Positions 1 through 7,740 of a stretch of 7,740 bases of DNA are shown here, in pieces. Made by a program: the position numbers and the translations under genes. Every line of letters begins with the position of its first letter. The first letter of the stretch is position 1. A model generated the notes under the pieces. That model worked only from the letters and a program-made list of their open reading frames with translations. It was not told the origin of the DNA and did no database searches. This stretch comes from a virus (Duplodnaviria > Heunggongvirae > Uroviricota > Caudoviricetes). Where the stretch lies: positions 1-7,740 of IMG/VR virus record IMGVR_UViG_2698536443_000001, one strand, 5' to 3'.

Positions 1-49
1 CCCCGTCAGTAGCTGAACAGGAGGGACAGCTGATAGAAACAGAAGCCAC
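1..49 (-). CDS. insA: IS1 InsA, 5' partial (first about 16 codons; continues beyond window)
   Basis: Minus-strand GTG GCT TCT GTT TCT ATC AGC TGT CCC TCC TGT TCA GCT ACT GAC GGG translates to (M)ASVSISCPSCSATDG, the known InsA N-terminus, starting at 49-47 and running off the left edge. Confidence 0.75.
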   Translation of the reverse strand, partial: MASVSISCPSCSATDG

Positions 50-81
50 TGGAGCACCTCAAAAACACCATCATACACTAA

Positions 82-104
82 ATCAGTAAGTTGGCAGCAT
101 CACC
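82..104 (-). repeat. IS1 left terminal inverted repeat (IRL, about 23 bp)
   Basis: Terminal GGTGATGCTGCCAACTTACTGAT on the minus strand ending exactly at the junction (position 104). Confidence 0.8.
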
Positions 105-453
105 CGAATTGCTTGTTTCGAATGAGAGTAATGTATTCTTCGCGAACGTTAGAAACGGTTACGTTAATCCCGTTGTTGTTGATCTCCTTCTCTTCGGTAT
201 TCGATGAGATTTGAAGGAAATCGCCCGTTGCGAGATACGTAAATCCGTTATAGTCCAAATCGAAATACCCATCTGTAAGCCGTAGAACATCCCCTGACGC
301 GGTAATCACTTCGATAATGTGAAACATCGATCCAGTAGAGAAAAGCTGCGGTAGCGTCAATCTAGACACGTTCTGCCCTGTCTGGTCGTTGTAGACCTCG
401 ATGAAGTCAAGATTAGTGCATAGTTTGCTGAATGATTCTTGAATAGTTGCCAT
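100..453 (-). pseudogene. Tail-module gene downstream of the distal-tail-like gene, interrupted by IS1: 117 phage-encoded codons (453..106), then an IS1-derived Gly codon and TGA stop (105..100)
   Basis: ATG at 453-451 overlaps the upstream TAA (TAATG coupling). The frame is open to the IS1 junction, and the last sense codon GGG (105-103) and the stop TGA (102-100) are supplied mostly by IS1 sequence. N-terminus MATIQESFSKLCTNLDFIEVYNDQ. The native C-terminal portion is presumably displaced beyond the IS1. Confidence 0.6.
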
Positions 454-1013
454 TATACATTCTCCACTAATTCGAATTTCATCTTGCCAATCTGGGCGAT
501 CTTCCAATCGATATTTTCAGTTTTGAGAACAAATTCACCTTCTACGTTCTGATACTTGATCACCTCACCAGCCAGGACGTTTTGACGCAAGTTAGGGAAG
601 AGTTTCATTTCACCACCTGATTTCACGTCTTCGGTGATCGTGTAGATTTTCTTGTGGTTCTCAAACTGGATGACAGTTCCCGCTTTCAGTGTTCCGGTGA
701 AGTTGGAGATTCTCACCTTACGCCCACCGCGAGCAGTACCAGCAGCAGCCGTTACCATCTGGCGTACATCACCTGTATATTTTGAAAAGTAAGACAGTGG
801 CACACTAAAAGGACGACCAAAAAGGTGACGTGCTACAAATTCTTTTACTTCGTTAATATCCTGAGCCATGTAATTCGCGGTAAATTCTGCTTCGTAAAAA
901 TGGATGCCAGTAAAGCGACGCTGGAACTTACCGGAGATAGATTGCGCCTTGAAGAAAGGTTGTTTTGATTTAAGAGTAAAATCTGTGATTTTAATATTCT
1001 TGGATTTGAACAT
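453..1013 (-). CDS. Putative distal tail / minor tail protein (186 aa), assigned by position immediately downstream of the tape measure gene
   Basis: Minus-strand ORF. Preferred start is ATG 1013-1011 (MFKSKNIKITDF...), preceded by GGGGG at 1026..1022 with an 8-nt spacer. The track's GTG at 1049 and the ATG at 1028 lack any Shine-Dalgarno and lie inside the hairpin. Stop TAA 455-453. Function is inferred from synteny only. Confidence 0.6.
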   Translation of the reverse strand: MFKSKNIKITDFTLKSKQPFFKAQSISGKFQRRFTGIHFYEAEFTANYMAQDINEVKEFVARHLFGRPFSVPLSYFSKYTGDVRQMVTAAAGTARGGRKVRISNFTGTLKAGTVIQFENHKKIYTITEDVKSGGEMKLFPNLRQNVLAGEVIKYQNVEGEFVLKTENIDWKIAQIGKMKFELVENV

Positions 1014-4150: not shown

Positions 4151-4657
4151 TTAAGAGATTTTCAAAGTCTGCTTAGTGCCAGTCTTCTTAATGTTATTGA
4201 GGAAAGCAGCCGGAGGATTGCTTAACCAGTAGTAATGAAAACCACTTTGCATACTGTTATAAGGAACAGTGACAGCAGCACCACCCAAATTAACGGTTAT
4301 ATTCCCCGCTCTACCGTTCTGGAGATATACAGCCATAGTAGGAGTACCACCATTGAATTGACCAACGATAACGCCAATCAGACGCCCTACGCCCACGTTT
4401 TCGGGGTTCTCCATTGACCCTTTACCGCGCATGTCAGTTACTGGATAGTTTGAAGCAGTTACCCCCCAGTTATTCCCCAATGAAGTAGACCATGCAGCAG
4501 TAGCTACAACCGTATCCATACCACGACCACACATCGCGCTCATATTACCAGGAACACCAACTTTTAACGCTTGCATAGCCTCACGCATCCATCGCTTGCC
4601 AGTCACAGAAACAGCCGATGATCCGACCCAGCCGGGCTTATTAACGACATTTGCCAT
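4151..4657 (-). CDS. Hypothetical protein (168 aa), Gly/Asn/Val/Thr-rich, possibly structural; function unknown
   Basis: ATG 4657-4655 preceded by GGAG (4669..4666) with an 8-nt spacer, immediately after a terminator-like hairpin. Stop TAA 4153-4151. No motif I can assign. Confidence 0.6.
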   Translation of the reverse strand: MANVVNKPGWVGSSAVSVTGKRWMREAMQALKVGVPGNMSAMCGRGMDTVVATAAWSTSLGNNWGVTASNYPVTDMRGKGSMENPENVGVGRLIGVIVGQFNGGTPTMAVYLQNGRAGNITVNLGGAAVTVPYNSMQSGFHYYWLSNPPAAFLNNIKKTGTKQTLKIS

Positions 4658-4669: not shown

Positions 4670-4699
4670 AATAAAAAAGCCCCACCATTAAGGCAGGGC
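4670..4699 (-). terminator. Intrinsic-terminator-like hairpin plus U-tract downstream of the tube gene and its extension
   Basis: Minus-strand RNA: GCCCUGCC (4699..4692), loop UUAAU, GGUGGGGC (4686..4679), then UUUUUUAUU (4678..4670). The 8-bp stem uses two G-U wobbles that would be C-A mismatches in a plus-strand RNA, so the structure is specific to the sense transcript. Confidence 0.5.
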
Positions 4700-4705
4700 T
4701 TAAAA

Positions 4706-4825: not shown

Positions 4826-5299
4826 TCATCCGGCAGTGAAGATTTCCTGTTTCAGCGGAGCACCATCAACAGCAAAGGTAAACTCTTTAGTTACCACTTC
4901 TTCATCGCCACCGTTCATAGCAACTTTAGAGATGAAGCCGTTGAAAGCGGTGCGAATACCAGTCTGTTTTGCTGCATCAACATAGTATTCAATCTTAATC
5001 TGAATACGAGTACCGTCTTCGGCAGCTTTAATGAGCTTCTCGTGTACCGCATCACCAGGGATGTAGTTAACGGTCAGAGTCAGATCAGGAACGTTCAGCT
5101 TCCCTACCAGCTTACGGTTATACTGAGAAGAGAAGGATTTAACTTCTACAGTACCGCGCTCGATACCAGTTTCAGGAAAACCAGCACACTCTTTAATTTC
5201 TTCGTAGCTTTCGTGATCGAGAGCGGTGTTAGTGGTATCGGCGTGATAGAACATACTTACCAGACCACCAGTAAAAATATCTTTAAATTGCTGAGTCAT
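4826..5299 (-). CDS. Putative major tail (tube) protein-like protein (157 aa)
   Basis: ATG 5299-5297 preceded by AAGGGG (5312..5307) with a 7-nt spacer. Stop TGA 4828-4826. Size and position (upstream of chaperone pair and tape measure gene), plus hairpins flanking the cistron on both sides, suggest an abundantly expressed structural gene. The tube assignment is inference. Confidence 0.6.
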   Translation of the reverse strand: MTQQFKDIFTGGLVSMFYHADTTNTALDHESYEEIKECAGFPETGIERGTVEVKSFSSQYNRKLVGKLNVPDLTLTVNYIPGDAVHEKLIKAAEDGTRIQIKIEYYVDAAKQTGIRTAFNGFISKVAMNGGDEEVVTKEFTFAVDGAPLKQEIFTAG

Positions 5300-5330: not shown

Positions 5331-5349
5331 CGGGGGAACTAGTCCCCCG
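5331..5349. terminator. GC-rich hairpin between fiber gene and tube-like gene (possible terminator or attenuator, either orientation)
   Basis: CGGGGGA (5331..5337), loop ACTAG, TCCCCCG (5343..5349): a perfect 7-bp stem. U-rich tracts follow on both strands (plus: CUUUUAUUAUUU; minus: UUAUAAACAAUUUUAAUU). Confidence 0.4.
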
Positions 5350-5356
5350 ACTTTTA

Positions 5357-7675
5357 TTATTTAGTTGCTTTCAGTTCGGCAATTTCTTTCTGTAATGCTT
5401 CGATCTGTGCTTTATATTTGGCGTCCATTTCCTGCATAGCTTTAATAATCAGAGCATTGACAGCAGAGTTAGAAATAGTCTTGATTGCTTCTGGATTTTC
5501 TGGATCTTCGGTGGATTGAATACCTACTGCTTCCGGCAATACTTCTTCCAGATCCTGAGCAATAATACCTACTTCGCGTTTAATCACTGTGTCATCGGAA
5601 AGAGATTTAACTTTATCGTAGGTGTAGACTTTCAGGGAGTTTACTTTCTCTAATGCGCCGTCCTGTAATTCTTCCTTGTTAATCTTCAAACGGGAGTCAG
5701 AGCGAATGTAAACATCGTTAAAGCTACCGTTACGACCTGCGGTAAAGTCACCAGCAGCGTTAAAGTCAAAGTTAGTATCATGAACATGGAGACGAACAAG
5801 AGCGTTACCGATAGTACCGCTAGGAACGTGCACACCCATTGCTGCAATGTGATATTGACCCCAATGAGTAGCTTTCCAGATGTTATGTGCTGAATCTTTT
5901 GATTGGGGGCAATCAACTTGCAAACCGGAAGCACGGTCACGCCAACTAGACCAGCTACCACCAGAAACGTTACCACGAATCAAACCTTTATCAGACCCGC
6001 CGACGCTACCAGATTCAAGATGAATCATCTTATCCGCAAGTTTCCACGTCTGGGCTTGTTTCTGACCACGGAAGCGAATAACACCAGCATCATCGGAATA
6101 CATCAAACCTAGTTCTAAGCCGTTCGGATCTCTAAACCAGATGTGCTTATTTCCAGTGCGCTTAAATTCAATATCAGCACCGTTAAGCGTGATATTACCG
6201 CCAGTGTGGATTGCTTGAGGCCTAACAGTACCATTGATGGCAAATTCAATAGTAGAAGTACCAGGACCGCCAGCACGTTGGGTATACCAGTGCCAACCAC
6301 TTTCATCCGCGCATTCTAATACTTGCTTACGAGAATCATTACCCCATGCACGAATATTAAAGCTGGATGTAGCTGTATTTTTACCCCAAGTAAACTTACC
6401 ACCGACTTCAAGATCGCCTAAGAAGTTTGCCTTAAGAGCACCAGTACCCATAGCACGCTCTGTGCTAAAATGTCGACCTTGACTGTCTTCTATATACAAA
6501 ACGTTATCACGGGCATTATTACTATCACCCCAATGATTAAATCGAATATAATCACGAGATCCGCTTCTCCCAGCAGAGAAGGTTAAAAACCCTTTCTCGA
6601 TATATGTATCGCCAGCAAATCGAGCAGCACGGCTATCTCTTTCAAGAATTAATGCGCCTTCGTTGCCGTCACCACCTAAAGTAACTTTACCGTTAGTCAA
6701 ATCGTAAATGAACGGTCTGTTTCCATTCCACCCGCCCAATTTATCATTTTCGGCAGTAGAAAGAAGATAAACTTTACCACCATCATTACGCCAGAATGCA
6801 CCATAATTACCGTAGATCATGCGGTAGGCGTCGCTATTCATTGAGATGAATTGAGCGTTAGTATAAACTCGTTTTGTTTTACCTGTTGCAAGTTCGATCT
6901 GTCCGTCGATGTGGTGACGAATAGAAGTACCACCTACATCACTATACCATTCAAAAACGTTAGTATCAGCATTACCATAGCCGATCCAACCTTGACGGGT
7001 AATATCTCCAGTCCGATTATCTTGAAACGCAATATGGTTGGATTGACCAGCAGGACGCCGCAAGGTAATAACATTACTACCGCCACCTAACATCATTCGA
7101 CCAGAAAGAATATTACCTTTATGAGTCCCAGCAATAGAGCTACTAGATTCAACGGTTAGAATCTCCTGAGCATCGGTACTACCCGTGGCGAGTCGATAAC
7201 TGGAACCTTGAACCGTCTCATGCCAGATCATTTCATTATAGTTACTACGGAATTTACGAATATATTTCCGTCCAGTACCTCTATCATTGCTTAGATGAAC
7301 AATGTCATAGCTGTTTTGTGTATTGTCGTCAAAACTCAACACACCACGTTTATTTTCGGTATTAAAAAGAGTTACGTTGCGACCACCGATAACACCAACG
7401 GAAGGTTTAATTAACGTGGCTTCCGGCGTATCATAAACCGTCAAACTTACATAAACAGATTTCCCATATTCGACAATAACGTTATCGGTATAACGCTGAT
7501 ATTTCACGTAGATATCATAGTTATCACCGGAAGTATTGACAGCAAATACCTCAAAATCCTTGTTTGTATTTCTACGGTATGCAATTACGTTAAGACCTTT
7601 AGGTCTATCGTTACCACTACGCAGAAGAATTTCTACTACGTCAACCTGTGGATTTGCCCCTATATTTCCAGACAT
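5357..7675 (-). CDS. Tail fiber / tailspike-like protein (772 aa) with C-terminal intramolecular chaperone auto-processing domain (peptidase S74-like)
   Basis: C-terminal region contains YIRSDSRLKINKEEL... followed by a coiled-coil tail (AKYKAQIEALQKEIAELKATK). The S...K spacing matches the Ser-Lys dyad motif of endosialidase-type C-terminal chaperone domains. The large Gly/Asn/Thr/Ser-rich central region is typical of beta-structured fibers. ATG 7675-7673, stop TAA 5359-5357. Confidence 0.8.
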   Translation of the reverse strand: MSGNIGANPQVDVVEILLRSGNDRPKGLNVIAYRRNTNKDFEVFAVNTSGDNYDIYVKYQRYTDNVIVEYGKSVYVSLTVYDTPEATLIKPSVGVIGGRNVTLFNTENKRGVLSFDDNTQNSYDIVHLSNDRGTGRKYIRKFRSNYNEMIWHETVQGSSYRLATGSTDAQEILTVESSSSIAGTHKGNILSGRMMLGGGSNVITLRRPAGQSNHIAFQDNRTGDITRQGWIGYGNADTNVFEWYSDVGGTSIRHHIDGQIELATGKTKRVYTNAQFISMNSDAYRMIYGNYGAFWRNDGGKVYLLSTAENDKLGGWNGNRPFIYDLTNGKVTLGGDGNEGALILERDSRAARFAGDTYIEKGFLTFSAGRSGSRDYIRFNHWGDSNNARDNVLYIEDSQGRHFSTERAMGTGALKANFLGDLEVGGKFTWGKNTATSSFNIRAWGNDSRKQVLECADESGWHWYTQRAGGPGTSTIEFAINGTVRPQAIHTGGNITLNGADIEFKRTGNKHIWFRDPNGLELGLMYSDDAGVIRFRGQKQAQTWKLADKMIHLESGSVGGSDKGLIRGNVSGGSWSSWRDRASGLQVDCPQSKDSAHNIWKATHWGQYHIAAMGVHVPSGTIGNALVRLHVHDTNFDFNAAGDFTAGRNGSFNDVYIRSDSRLKINKEELQDGALEKVNSLKVYTYDKVKSLSDDTVIKREVGIIAQDLEEVLPEAVGIQSTEDPENPEAIKTISNSAVNALIIKAMQEMDAKYKAQIEALQKEIAELKATK
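5360..5701 (-). other. Intramolecular chaperone (S74-like) domain-coding region of the fiber gene; predicted autocleavage motif SDSRLK at 5684..5701
   Basis: Residues about 659-772. Codons TCT GAC TCC CGT TTG AAG (5701..5684) encode S-D-S-R-L-K. Confidence 0.6.
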
Positions 7676-7740
7676 CTGTTATCACTTAACCCATTACAAG
7701 CCCGCTGCCGCAGATATTCCCGTGGCGAGCGATAACCCAG

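Follow-up and report, generated by a model that had tools for sequence, protein, structure and literature searches.

We analyzed a 7,740-bp stretch of viral DNA (hereafter the window; IMG/VR record IMGVR_UViG_2698536443_000001, Caudoviricetes) that is the entire draft contig CYFN01000104.1 of the Escherichia coli assembly GCA_001283445.1. The feature under study lies on the minus strand of the window and is an open reading frame (ORF) of 772 codons (5357..7675) that reads from the right end of the insertion sequence IS2, through a tail fiber shaft and tip, into a C-terminal Peptidase_S74 domain. Downstream of it are a tail tube gene and then a gene for a short gp38-like adhesin. By sequence homology the fiber is a near full-length relative of the T-even-type distal long tail fiber gp37, carried on a siphovirus-type E. 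coli prophage. The ORF is the downstream fragment of a gene encoding 1176 amino acids (aa), into which IS2 inserted after codon 415. We consider it very probable that its C-terminus is the S74 chaperone and self-cleavage domain of this gp37 homologue, that intact copies of the fiber are capped by a gp38-like protein, and that the gene has been inactivated here by IS2.

The last 114 residues of the ORF (residues 659-772, equal to 1063-1176 of the intact protein; window 5360..5701, minus strand; 12.6 kDa) constitute a Peptidase_S74 intramolecular chaperone domain that starts with SDSRLKINKEEL and finishes with KYKAQIEALQKEIAELKATK. The Pfam profile Peptidase_S74 (PF13884, "chaperone of endosialidase") matched residues 659-717 over profile positions 1-57 of 58 with an E-value of 8e-14 and 52.1 bits, which is far above chance given the curated cutoff of 22 bits, and the isolated C-terminus scored 56.9 bits against the same family. 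A word-indexed homologue search with the 132-aa C-terminus returned 19 short fragments, and an exhaustive HMMER search of 1.84 billion representatives was used in its place, yielding 2383 proteins with E ≤ 1e-3. Among the retrieved homologues, which ranged from <100 to ~2700 aa, 159/170 domain matches ended within 10 residues of the protein C-terminus.

The predicted catalytic residues are nearly invariant in this family. In an alignment of 142 domains, Ser659 (intact Ser1063; codon TCT at 5701-5699, minus strand), the predicted nucleophile and first released residue, was conserved in 141/142, as was Asp660, and Lys664 (intact Lys1068; codon 5684..5686, minus strand), the predicted general base, in 142/142. 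Arg662 was present in 133/142, Gly703 and Ala706 in all 142, and Gln707 in 136/142. A search of the PDB with the single sequence gave a weak match to phage S16 (E 0.003), which was resolved by a profile of 23 sequences that matched S16 gp37 (6F45_A, 2e-23), the human MyRF ICA domain (7DC3, 2e-12), a phage tail fiber (8JOV, 8e-12), and the released chaperone of the GA-1 neck appendage (3GUD, 8e-4). The 3GUD chain starts at SDERHK, which aligned to SDSRLK in the window such that its first residue corresponds to Ser659. In the profile alignment with 7DC3, where the motif is (S587A)DLRAK and that of S16 is SDRRIK, the mutated S587A position corresponds to Ser659 and K592 to Lys664. MyRF S587 and K592 are the equivalents of endosialidase S911 and K916 and make up a serine-lysine catalytic pair; cleavage is lost when either is replaced by alanine (S587A or K592A), and trimerization of MyRF is driven by its C-terminal coiled coil (PMC8326128).

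The predicted structure of the domain agreed with the profile results. An AlphaFold2 (AF2) monomer model of the last 132 residues had a predicted local distance difference test (pLDDT) score of 88.9 and ended in a single 36-residue helix (model positions 96-131, pLDDT 93-98). This helix spans residues 736-771 (window 5363..5470, minus strand) and, by analogy with MyRF, is likely to form a trimeric coiled coil. A Foldseek search of the model against the PDB found 7DC3 first (E 1.6e-5, template modeling score 0.62), then the endosialidase chaperone 3GW6 and 3GUD, and nothing unrelated to chaperone domains below E 0.1. An earlier reading of the window's letters alone (the original prediction) had proposed that the last ~114 residues are such a domain with an SDSRLK Ser-Lys dyad, a coiled-coil segment at the C-terminus, and a released fragment of ~12 kDa, with a Peptidase_S74 profile search of the C-terminus as the check. 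Pfam, the AF2 fold, and the homologue profile all bore out the domain, the Ser-x4-Lys pair and the long terminal helix were both found, and the computed mass of the fragment that cleavage is predicted to release agrees with the proposed size. Because the Pfam match begins exactly at the serine that had been named, the profile search counts in favor of that prediction.

DNA similarity to gene 37 of the Krischvirus phages ended 22 codons before the stop codon (window 5360-5425), and the helix end KYKAQIEALQKEIAELKATK differed from that of Krischvirus ECD7 by a 4-residue indel and several substitutions. Most homologues in the 142-sequence alignment were gapped at the final ~10 positions, indicating a helix that stops earlier in those proteins. 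A 1174-aa homologue (P0020) shared 82% identity with the rejoined fiber in the N-terminal part, 55% in the shaft and tip, and 97% in the chaperone domain. In sequence, this comparison is a mosaic in which the N-terminal part and chaperone domain were kept and the fiber middle exchanged.

The gp37-like shaft and tip occupy window positions 5702..7648 on the minus strand (ORF residues 10-658, intact residues 414-1062). ORF residues 230-324 (window 6704-6988) matched Pfam Gp34_trimer with 87.5 bits, and PHROG 1699, "long tail fiber protein distal subunit", matched with an E-value of 2.4e-124. Window positions 5426-7648 shared 80–83% DNA identity with gene 37 of Krischvirus phages ECD7, phi1, and RB49. 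The intact prophage fiber was 77% identical in aa to ECD7 gp37 between residues 243-1150 and 71-978, respectively (917 aligned columns), and the extreme N-termini of the two proteins were likewise related. The original prediction had found no assignable motif in the N-terminal 650 residues, a statement that these matches overturn. An alanine/asparagine/threonine-rich repeat segment of ~190 aa (NKTxAxxxIxxL-like; residues ~52-242 of the intact fiber, locus L007:7624-8868) is placed between the conserved N-terminus and the gp37-like shaft and is absent from Krischvirus gp37.

The 5' end of the ORF is supplied by IS2. The right end of the element occupies 7649..7740 (minus strand), provides the ATG of the ORF (7675-7673) and its first nine codons (MSGNIGANP), which sit within the IS2 terminal repeat, and encodes the C-terminus of the transposase in a different frame. 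Positions 7649-7740 matched IS2 in thousands of E. coli records, and homology to related prophages and T-even phages broke off sharply at 7648. ORF residues 10-772 corresponded to residues 395-1153 of the intact 1153-aa fiber of an E. coli ETEC1738 prophage with 83% aa identity. The missing half was found in the same assembly, where CTZ54658.1 (419 aa), which falls into the same protein cluster, sits at the end of contig CYFN01000100.1 and combines fiber residues 1-415 with four residues (RLAP) translated from the left end of IS2. Terminase, portal, protease-capsid, and head-tail genes lie upstream of it on that contig. The left-end junction reads ...gatCAGGT followed by TAGACTGGCCCCC (contig CYFN01000100.1), the right-end junction reads GGGGCAAATCCA followed by CAGGTtgacgta, and an uninterrupted relative reads ...gaccaagttgatgta at the insertion site. 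The two IS2 junctions are thus flanked by a 5-bp duplication of the target, CAGGT. IS2 generates 5-bp direct repeats. When the halves were rejoined they encoded 1176 aa with gapless 96.2% identity to an intact 1176-aa Shigella boydii protein (P0175), to which the chaperone domain was 100% identical. The IS2/fiber junction had no exact match in species-representative genomes.

These results change the size and status of the protein. The 772-codon ORF exists as the original prediction described it, yet it is a product of the IS2 insertion and not a natural protein. Since the rejoined gene encodes 1176 aa, the correct numbering of the catalytic pair is Ser1063/Lys1068, and the predicted products of processing are 1062 aa (~116 kDa per chain) and 114 aa (12.6 kDa) in place of the mature fiber of ~658 aa that had been proposed. 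In this genome the fragment does not share an uninterrupted reading frame with the N-terminal part found in the intact homologues, and because of the IS2 split the intact fiber cannot be made or assembled here. RefSeq lists the 772-aa protein as WP_261289482.1, "tail fiber domain-containing protein", with a precomputed PF13884 match. Size predictions or expression designs made from that record would be misleading, since the 772-aa protein is an artefact of the IS2 insertion.

The neighboring genes form a siphovirus-type tail module with tube, assembly chaperone, tape measure, distal tail protein, and hub. The tube gene lies between the fiber and adhesin genes (4826..5299, minus strand); its product matched PHROG 158, "major tail protein", at 4.6e-21 and Pfam Phage_TTP_11 at 28.1 bits, just under the 28.4-bit cutoff. 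A GC-rich palindromic hairpin (window 5331-5349) lies between the fiber stop codon and the start of the tube gene. Inspection of the tail assembly chaperone junction revealed no clear slippery site. The opposite end of the contig is the end of an IS1 element (1..104, ending ...gcatcacc at 104), 100% identical to the IS1 copies of P1 and other records. The element interrupts a hub-like gene (window 100-507; weak Phage_phiJL001_Gp84_N match), leaving ~116 N-terminal codons of a protein that has 217 aa where intact (ETEC1738). An insertion element has therefore disrupted another tail gene of this prophage, at the end of the contig opposite IS2, which indicates that the prophage is decaying. Rfam searches of both strands gave no match, and overlapping alternative-frame ORFs within the fiber gene (e.g. 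5686-5976) were set aside as lacking support.

The adhesin gene, two genes downstream of the fiber gene (4151..4657, minus strand), encodes a short gp38-like tail fiber adhesin of 168 aa, the probable receptor-binding cap. Its product matched Gp38_N with 56 bits and PHROG 1121, "tail fiber adhesin", at 1.5e-33. Nine residues (G9, W10, G12, S14, A15, T19, G20, W23, and M24) were invariant with T2 and Krischvirus gp38, and the alignment that also included phage phi191 retained both W10 and W23. The attachment domain was closest to Krischvirus gp38 (65% identity, vs 48% for T2), and this Krischvirus-like attachment domain matches the Krischvirus-like fiber. The C-terminal part is different and shorter, and is common to the adhesins of Shiga toxin (Stx) phages, CMS-2020a, and Kosakonia phage 305. 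This short adhesin type was found in O104:H4-type Stx2a phages, phage CMS-2020a, and the T-even Kosakonia phage 305, and in the latter two its gene lies directly 3' of an S74-ending fiber. A sequence search of the PDB with the gp38-like protein gave no match. The original prediction had left receptor specificity unassigned and overlooked this gene, whose product would cap the fiber tip by analogy with S16 and T2. The domain assignment of that prediction is correct but ordinary, while its statements on size and specificity need correction.

Members of the short gp38 type have 165-170 aa, comprising Gp38_N and a C-terminal part of ~125 aa without polyglycine motifs (window 4151-4657, L003:5986-6498, L008:3893-4405, and L009:3995-4492). 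In BLAST searches of the phage collection the C-terminal part matched only O104:H4-type Stx2a phages and CMS-2020a, with Kosakonia 305 added when the full-length protein was used. In Stx phage phi191 (NC_028660, L003:5640-5985) the annotated 699-aa fiber begins the S74 domain with NDVQIR followed by SDKRNKRNLVKLDNALDRLEHL and then leaves the frame; the remainder of the S74 domain can be followed in two other frames until immediately ahead of the gp38-like gene, and the CMS-2020a version is intact. As read from its sequence, the phi191 chaperone domain is broken by two frameshifts in NC_028660, either by decay or by sequencing error. We also considered that Krischvirus phages might have no gp38, as none lies beside ECD7 gp37, but rejected this because a full gp38 is present ~100 kb away, in agreement with PMC3157838.

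The fate of the domain in intact copies (1153-1176 aa) can be proposed from studied relatives. In S16, the last 113 residues of gp37 are autocleaved at DLNVS^SDRRIKK (^ marks the known or predicted cut) after trimerization, which exposes the gp38 docking surface; the fPS phages have DVYIR^SDGRLKI at the equivalent site, and the N-terminal domain of gp38 inserts a pair of conserved tryptophans into the fiber tip (PMC7917993). T2 and T6 gp37 are similarly cleaved and then capped by gp38 (PMC3157838). The window sequence is DVYIR^SDSRLKI and that of T2 gp37 is NVYIR^SDIRLK, with VYIR common to T2 and Krischvirus gp37. By this homology, the C-terminal helices of the domain would nucleate trimerization and folding of the fiber, after which Ser1063 and Lys1068 (Ser659 and Lys664 of the ORF) would cut the chain between Arg and Ser in DVYIR^SDSRLK. 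The cut would free the 114-aa fragment and expose a flat tip whose predicted C-terminus and docking surface is the DVYIR strand (residues 654-658; window 5702..5716, minus strand), identical to that of the fPS site. The gp38-like adhesin would then dock on the exposed tip via its N-terminal domain, including W10 and W23, and bind the receptor. On the model of S16 and T2, the short adhesin is probably the receptor-binding protein.

Several points weigh against this reading. Cleavage and gp38 docking are predicted from homology. The adhesin was without the polyglycine receptor-binding domain PF05268 of S16 and T2 gp38 in both Pfam and the alignment, while Krischvirus gp38 matched PF05268 with 243 bits. 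The AF2 monomer model of the gp38-like protein, made from a shallow alignment, was unusable (pLDDT 42.5). The fiber and adhesin genes are not neighbors: between them lie the tube gene and a strong terminator-like hairpin with a T-run (window 4677-4701, minus strand), which directly follows the tube gene and precedes the gp38-like gene. Finally, the adjacency of the two fiber halves across one IS2 copy is deduced from the matching junctions and target duplication on two draft contigs.

The separated adhesin gene and the lack of a canonical GP38 polyglycine domain would also fit a fiber resembling T5 pb1, whose released tip would bind the receptor itself while the gp38-like protein would be no part of the fiber. 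S74-ending fibers that need no separate adhesin exist, T5 being an example (PMC11990801). We nevertheless regard this arrangement as improbable, as DVYIR, the strand on which gp38 docks, directly precedes the cleavage site and the adhesin has a clear Gp38_N with both tryptophans whose closest relative is the gp38 of the phages with the matching fiber. Moreover, in CMS-2020a and Kosakonia phage 305 a short Gp38_N adhesin is encoded immediately after an S74-ending fiber, and displacement of the gp38 gene from gp37 also occurs in RB49 (PMC3157838).

It is very unlikely that the 772-aa ORF is expressed in its present form, for instance by read-through from the IS2 transposase, and acts as a stand-alone trimeric self-processing protein. 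All 763 phage-derived codons are open, IS2 lies in the same orientation and provides an in-frame ATG, and C-terminal gp37 fragments can fold, as the 6F45 construct did. Against this, the ORF lacks the first 413 residues of the intact fiber, the presumed virion-attachment end if the analogy with gp37 holds, and its ATG is not preceded by an obvious Shine-Dalgarno sequence. Sigma-70 promoter-like sites were no more common than in shuffled sequence, which leaves independent expression of the truncated ORF unsupported. The IS1-cut tail gene marks the prophage as decaying, and the gapless match of the rejoined gene to intact homologues is what would be expected from a recent disruption rather than a new gene. 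That the domain is a catalytically dead folding chaperone that stays attached is barely credible: although cleavage of the window protein is argued from homology, the domain retains every near-invariant residue of the family (S, D, R, K, G, A, and Q) and shares 100% identity with its counterpart in an intact homologue.

The preferred reading, of a cleaved and gp38-capped gp37 homologue, would place a T-even-type fiber end on a siphovirus-type tail. Directly upstream of the fiber 5' half, outside the window, is a gene for a 277-aa protein (CYFN01000100.1, locus L007:6711-7544). Its residues 3-163 are a paralogue of the window tube protein over the whole length of the latter (29% identity, E 6e-15). 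Residues 180-277 are similar to the last 100 aa of Krischvirus gp36 (31% identity, E 1e-5), and the protein had no Pfam match. These similarities suggest a tube-like anchor with a gp36-type joint that might hold a T-even distal half-fiber on a non-contractile tail. We tentatively propose that this prophage family mounts a complete T-even-type distal half-fiber on a siphovirus tail, composed of the tube paralogue with its gp36-like end as a dedicated anchor, the gp37-like fiber together with its self-cleaving chaperone, and the short gp38-like adhesin, though we hold this as possible and not as the expected outcome. If true, it would represent a previously undescribed mode of fiber attachment and a module recently transferred (~80% DNA identity) between temperate siphophages and the virulent Krischvirus myophages.

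The S74 domain, its catalytic pair, its presence on gp37-type fibers, and capping by gp38 (S16, T2, and T6) are already established, and the locus carries little weight as a discovery, being a known mechanism in a disrupted prophage gene. Its practical value is corrective: the relevant protein has 1176 aa, with catalytic Ser1063 and Lys1068. It further offers a clear case of two processes, a recent exchange of fiber modules that involved virulent T-even phages and temperate siphophages, and the decay of a prophage through IS elements.

Among known systems, the closest are the S16 gp37-gp38 tip (6F45) and the fibers of T2 and T6. They likewise have a gp37-type trimeric fiber ending in a ~113-aa S74 chaperone, the cleavage motif xVxxx^SDxRxK aligns with that of the window, and the VYIR tip strand is shared between T2 and the window. 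A separate gp38 with a Gp38_N attachment domain and two tryptophans is also present in these phages, as in the window. In contrast, the window adhesin is short (168 aa) and lacks the polyglycine GP38 domain, its gene is split from the fiber gene by the tube gene, the fiber gene is itself split by IS2, and the host element is a siphovirus-type temperate prophage rather than a T-even myophage. Krischvirus gp37 (RB49, phi1, and ECD7) has the same Gp34_trimer plus Peptidase_S74 layout, and its gp38 gene is likewise non-adjacent. Compared with it, the prophage fiber is longer by a repeat-rich segment of ~190 aa in the N-terminal region and diverges in its last ~22 codons, and Krischvirus gp38 is of the long polyglycine type (259 aa) in contrast to the 168-aa adhesin of the window.

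More distant are the chaperone domains of endoNF of K1F (3GW6), GA-1 (3GUD), and MyRF (ICA, 7DC3), which belong to the same Pfam family, have the same Ser-x4-Lys pair and fold class, and, as in the window domain, have a C-terminal helix suited to trimerization. Their sequence identity to the window domain is low (12–19%), and they sit on tailspikes or a eukaryotic transcription factor, whereas that of the window sits on a gp37-type fiber predicted to be capped by an adhesin. The L-shaped tail fiber pb1 of T5 resembles the intact prophage fiber, as predicted here, in being a side fiber on a non-contractile tail with a self-cleaving chaperone end (PMC11990801). The T5 tip itself binds the receptor, however, whereas the window has a Gp38_N adhesin gene and a gp38-docking strand.

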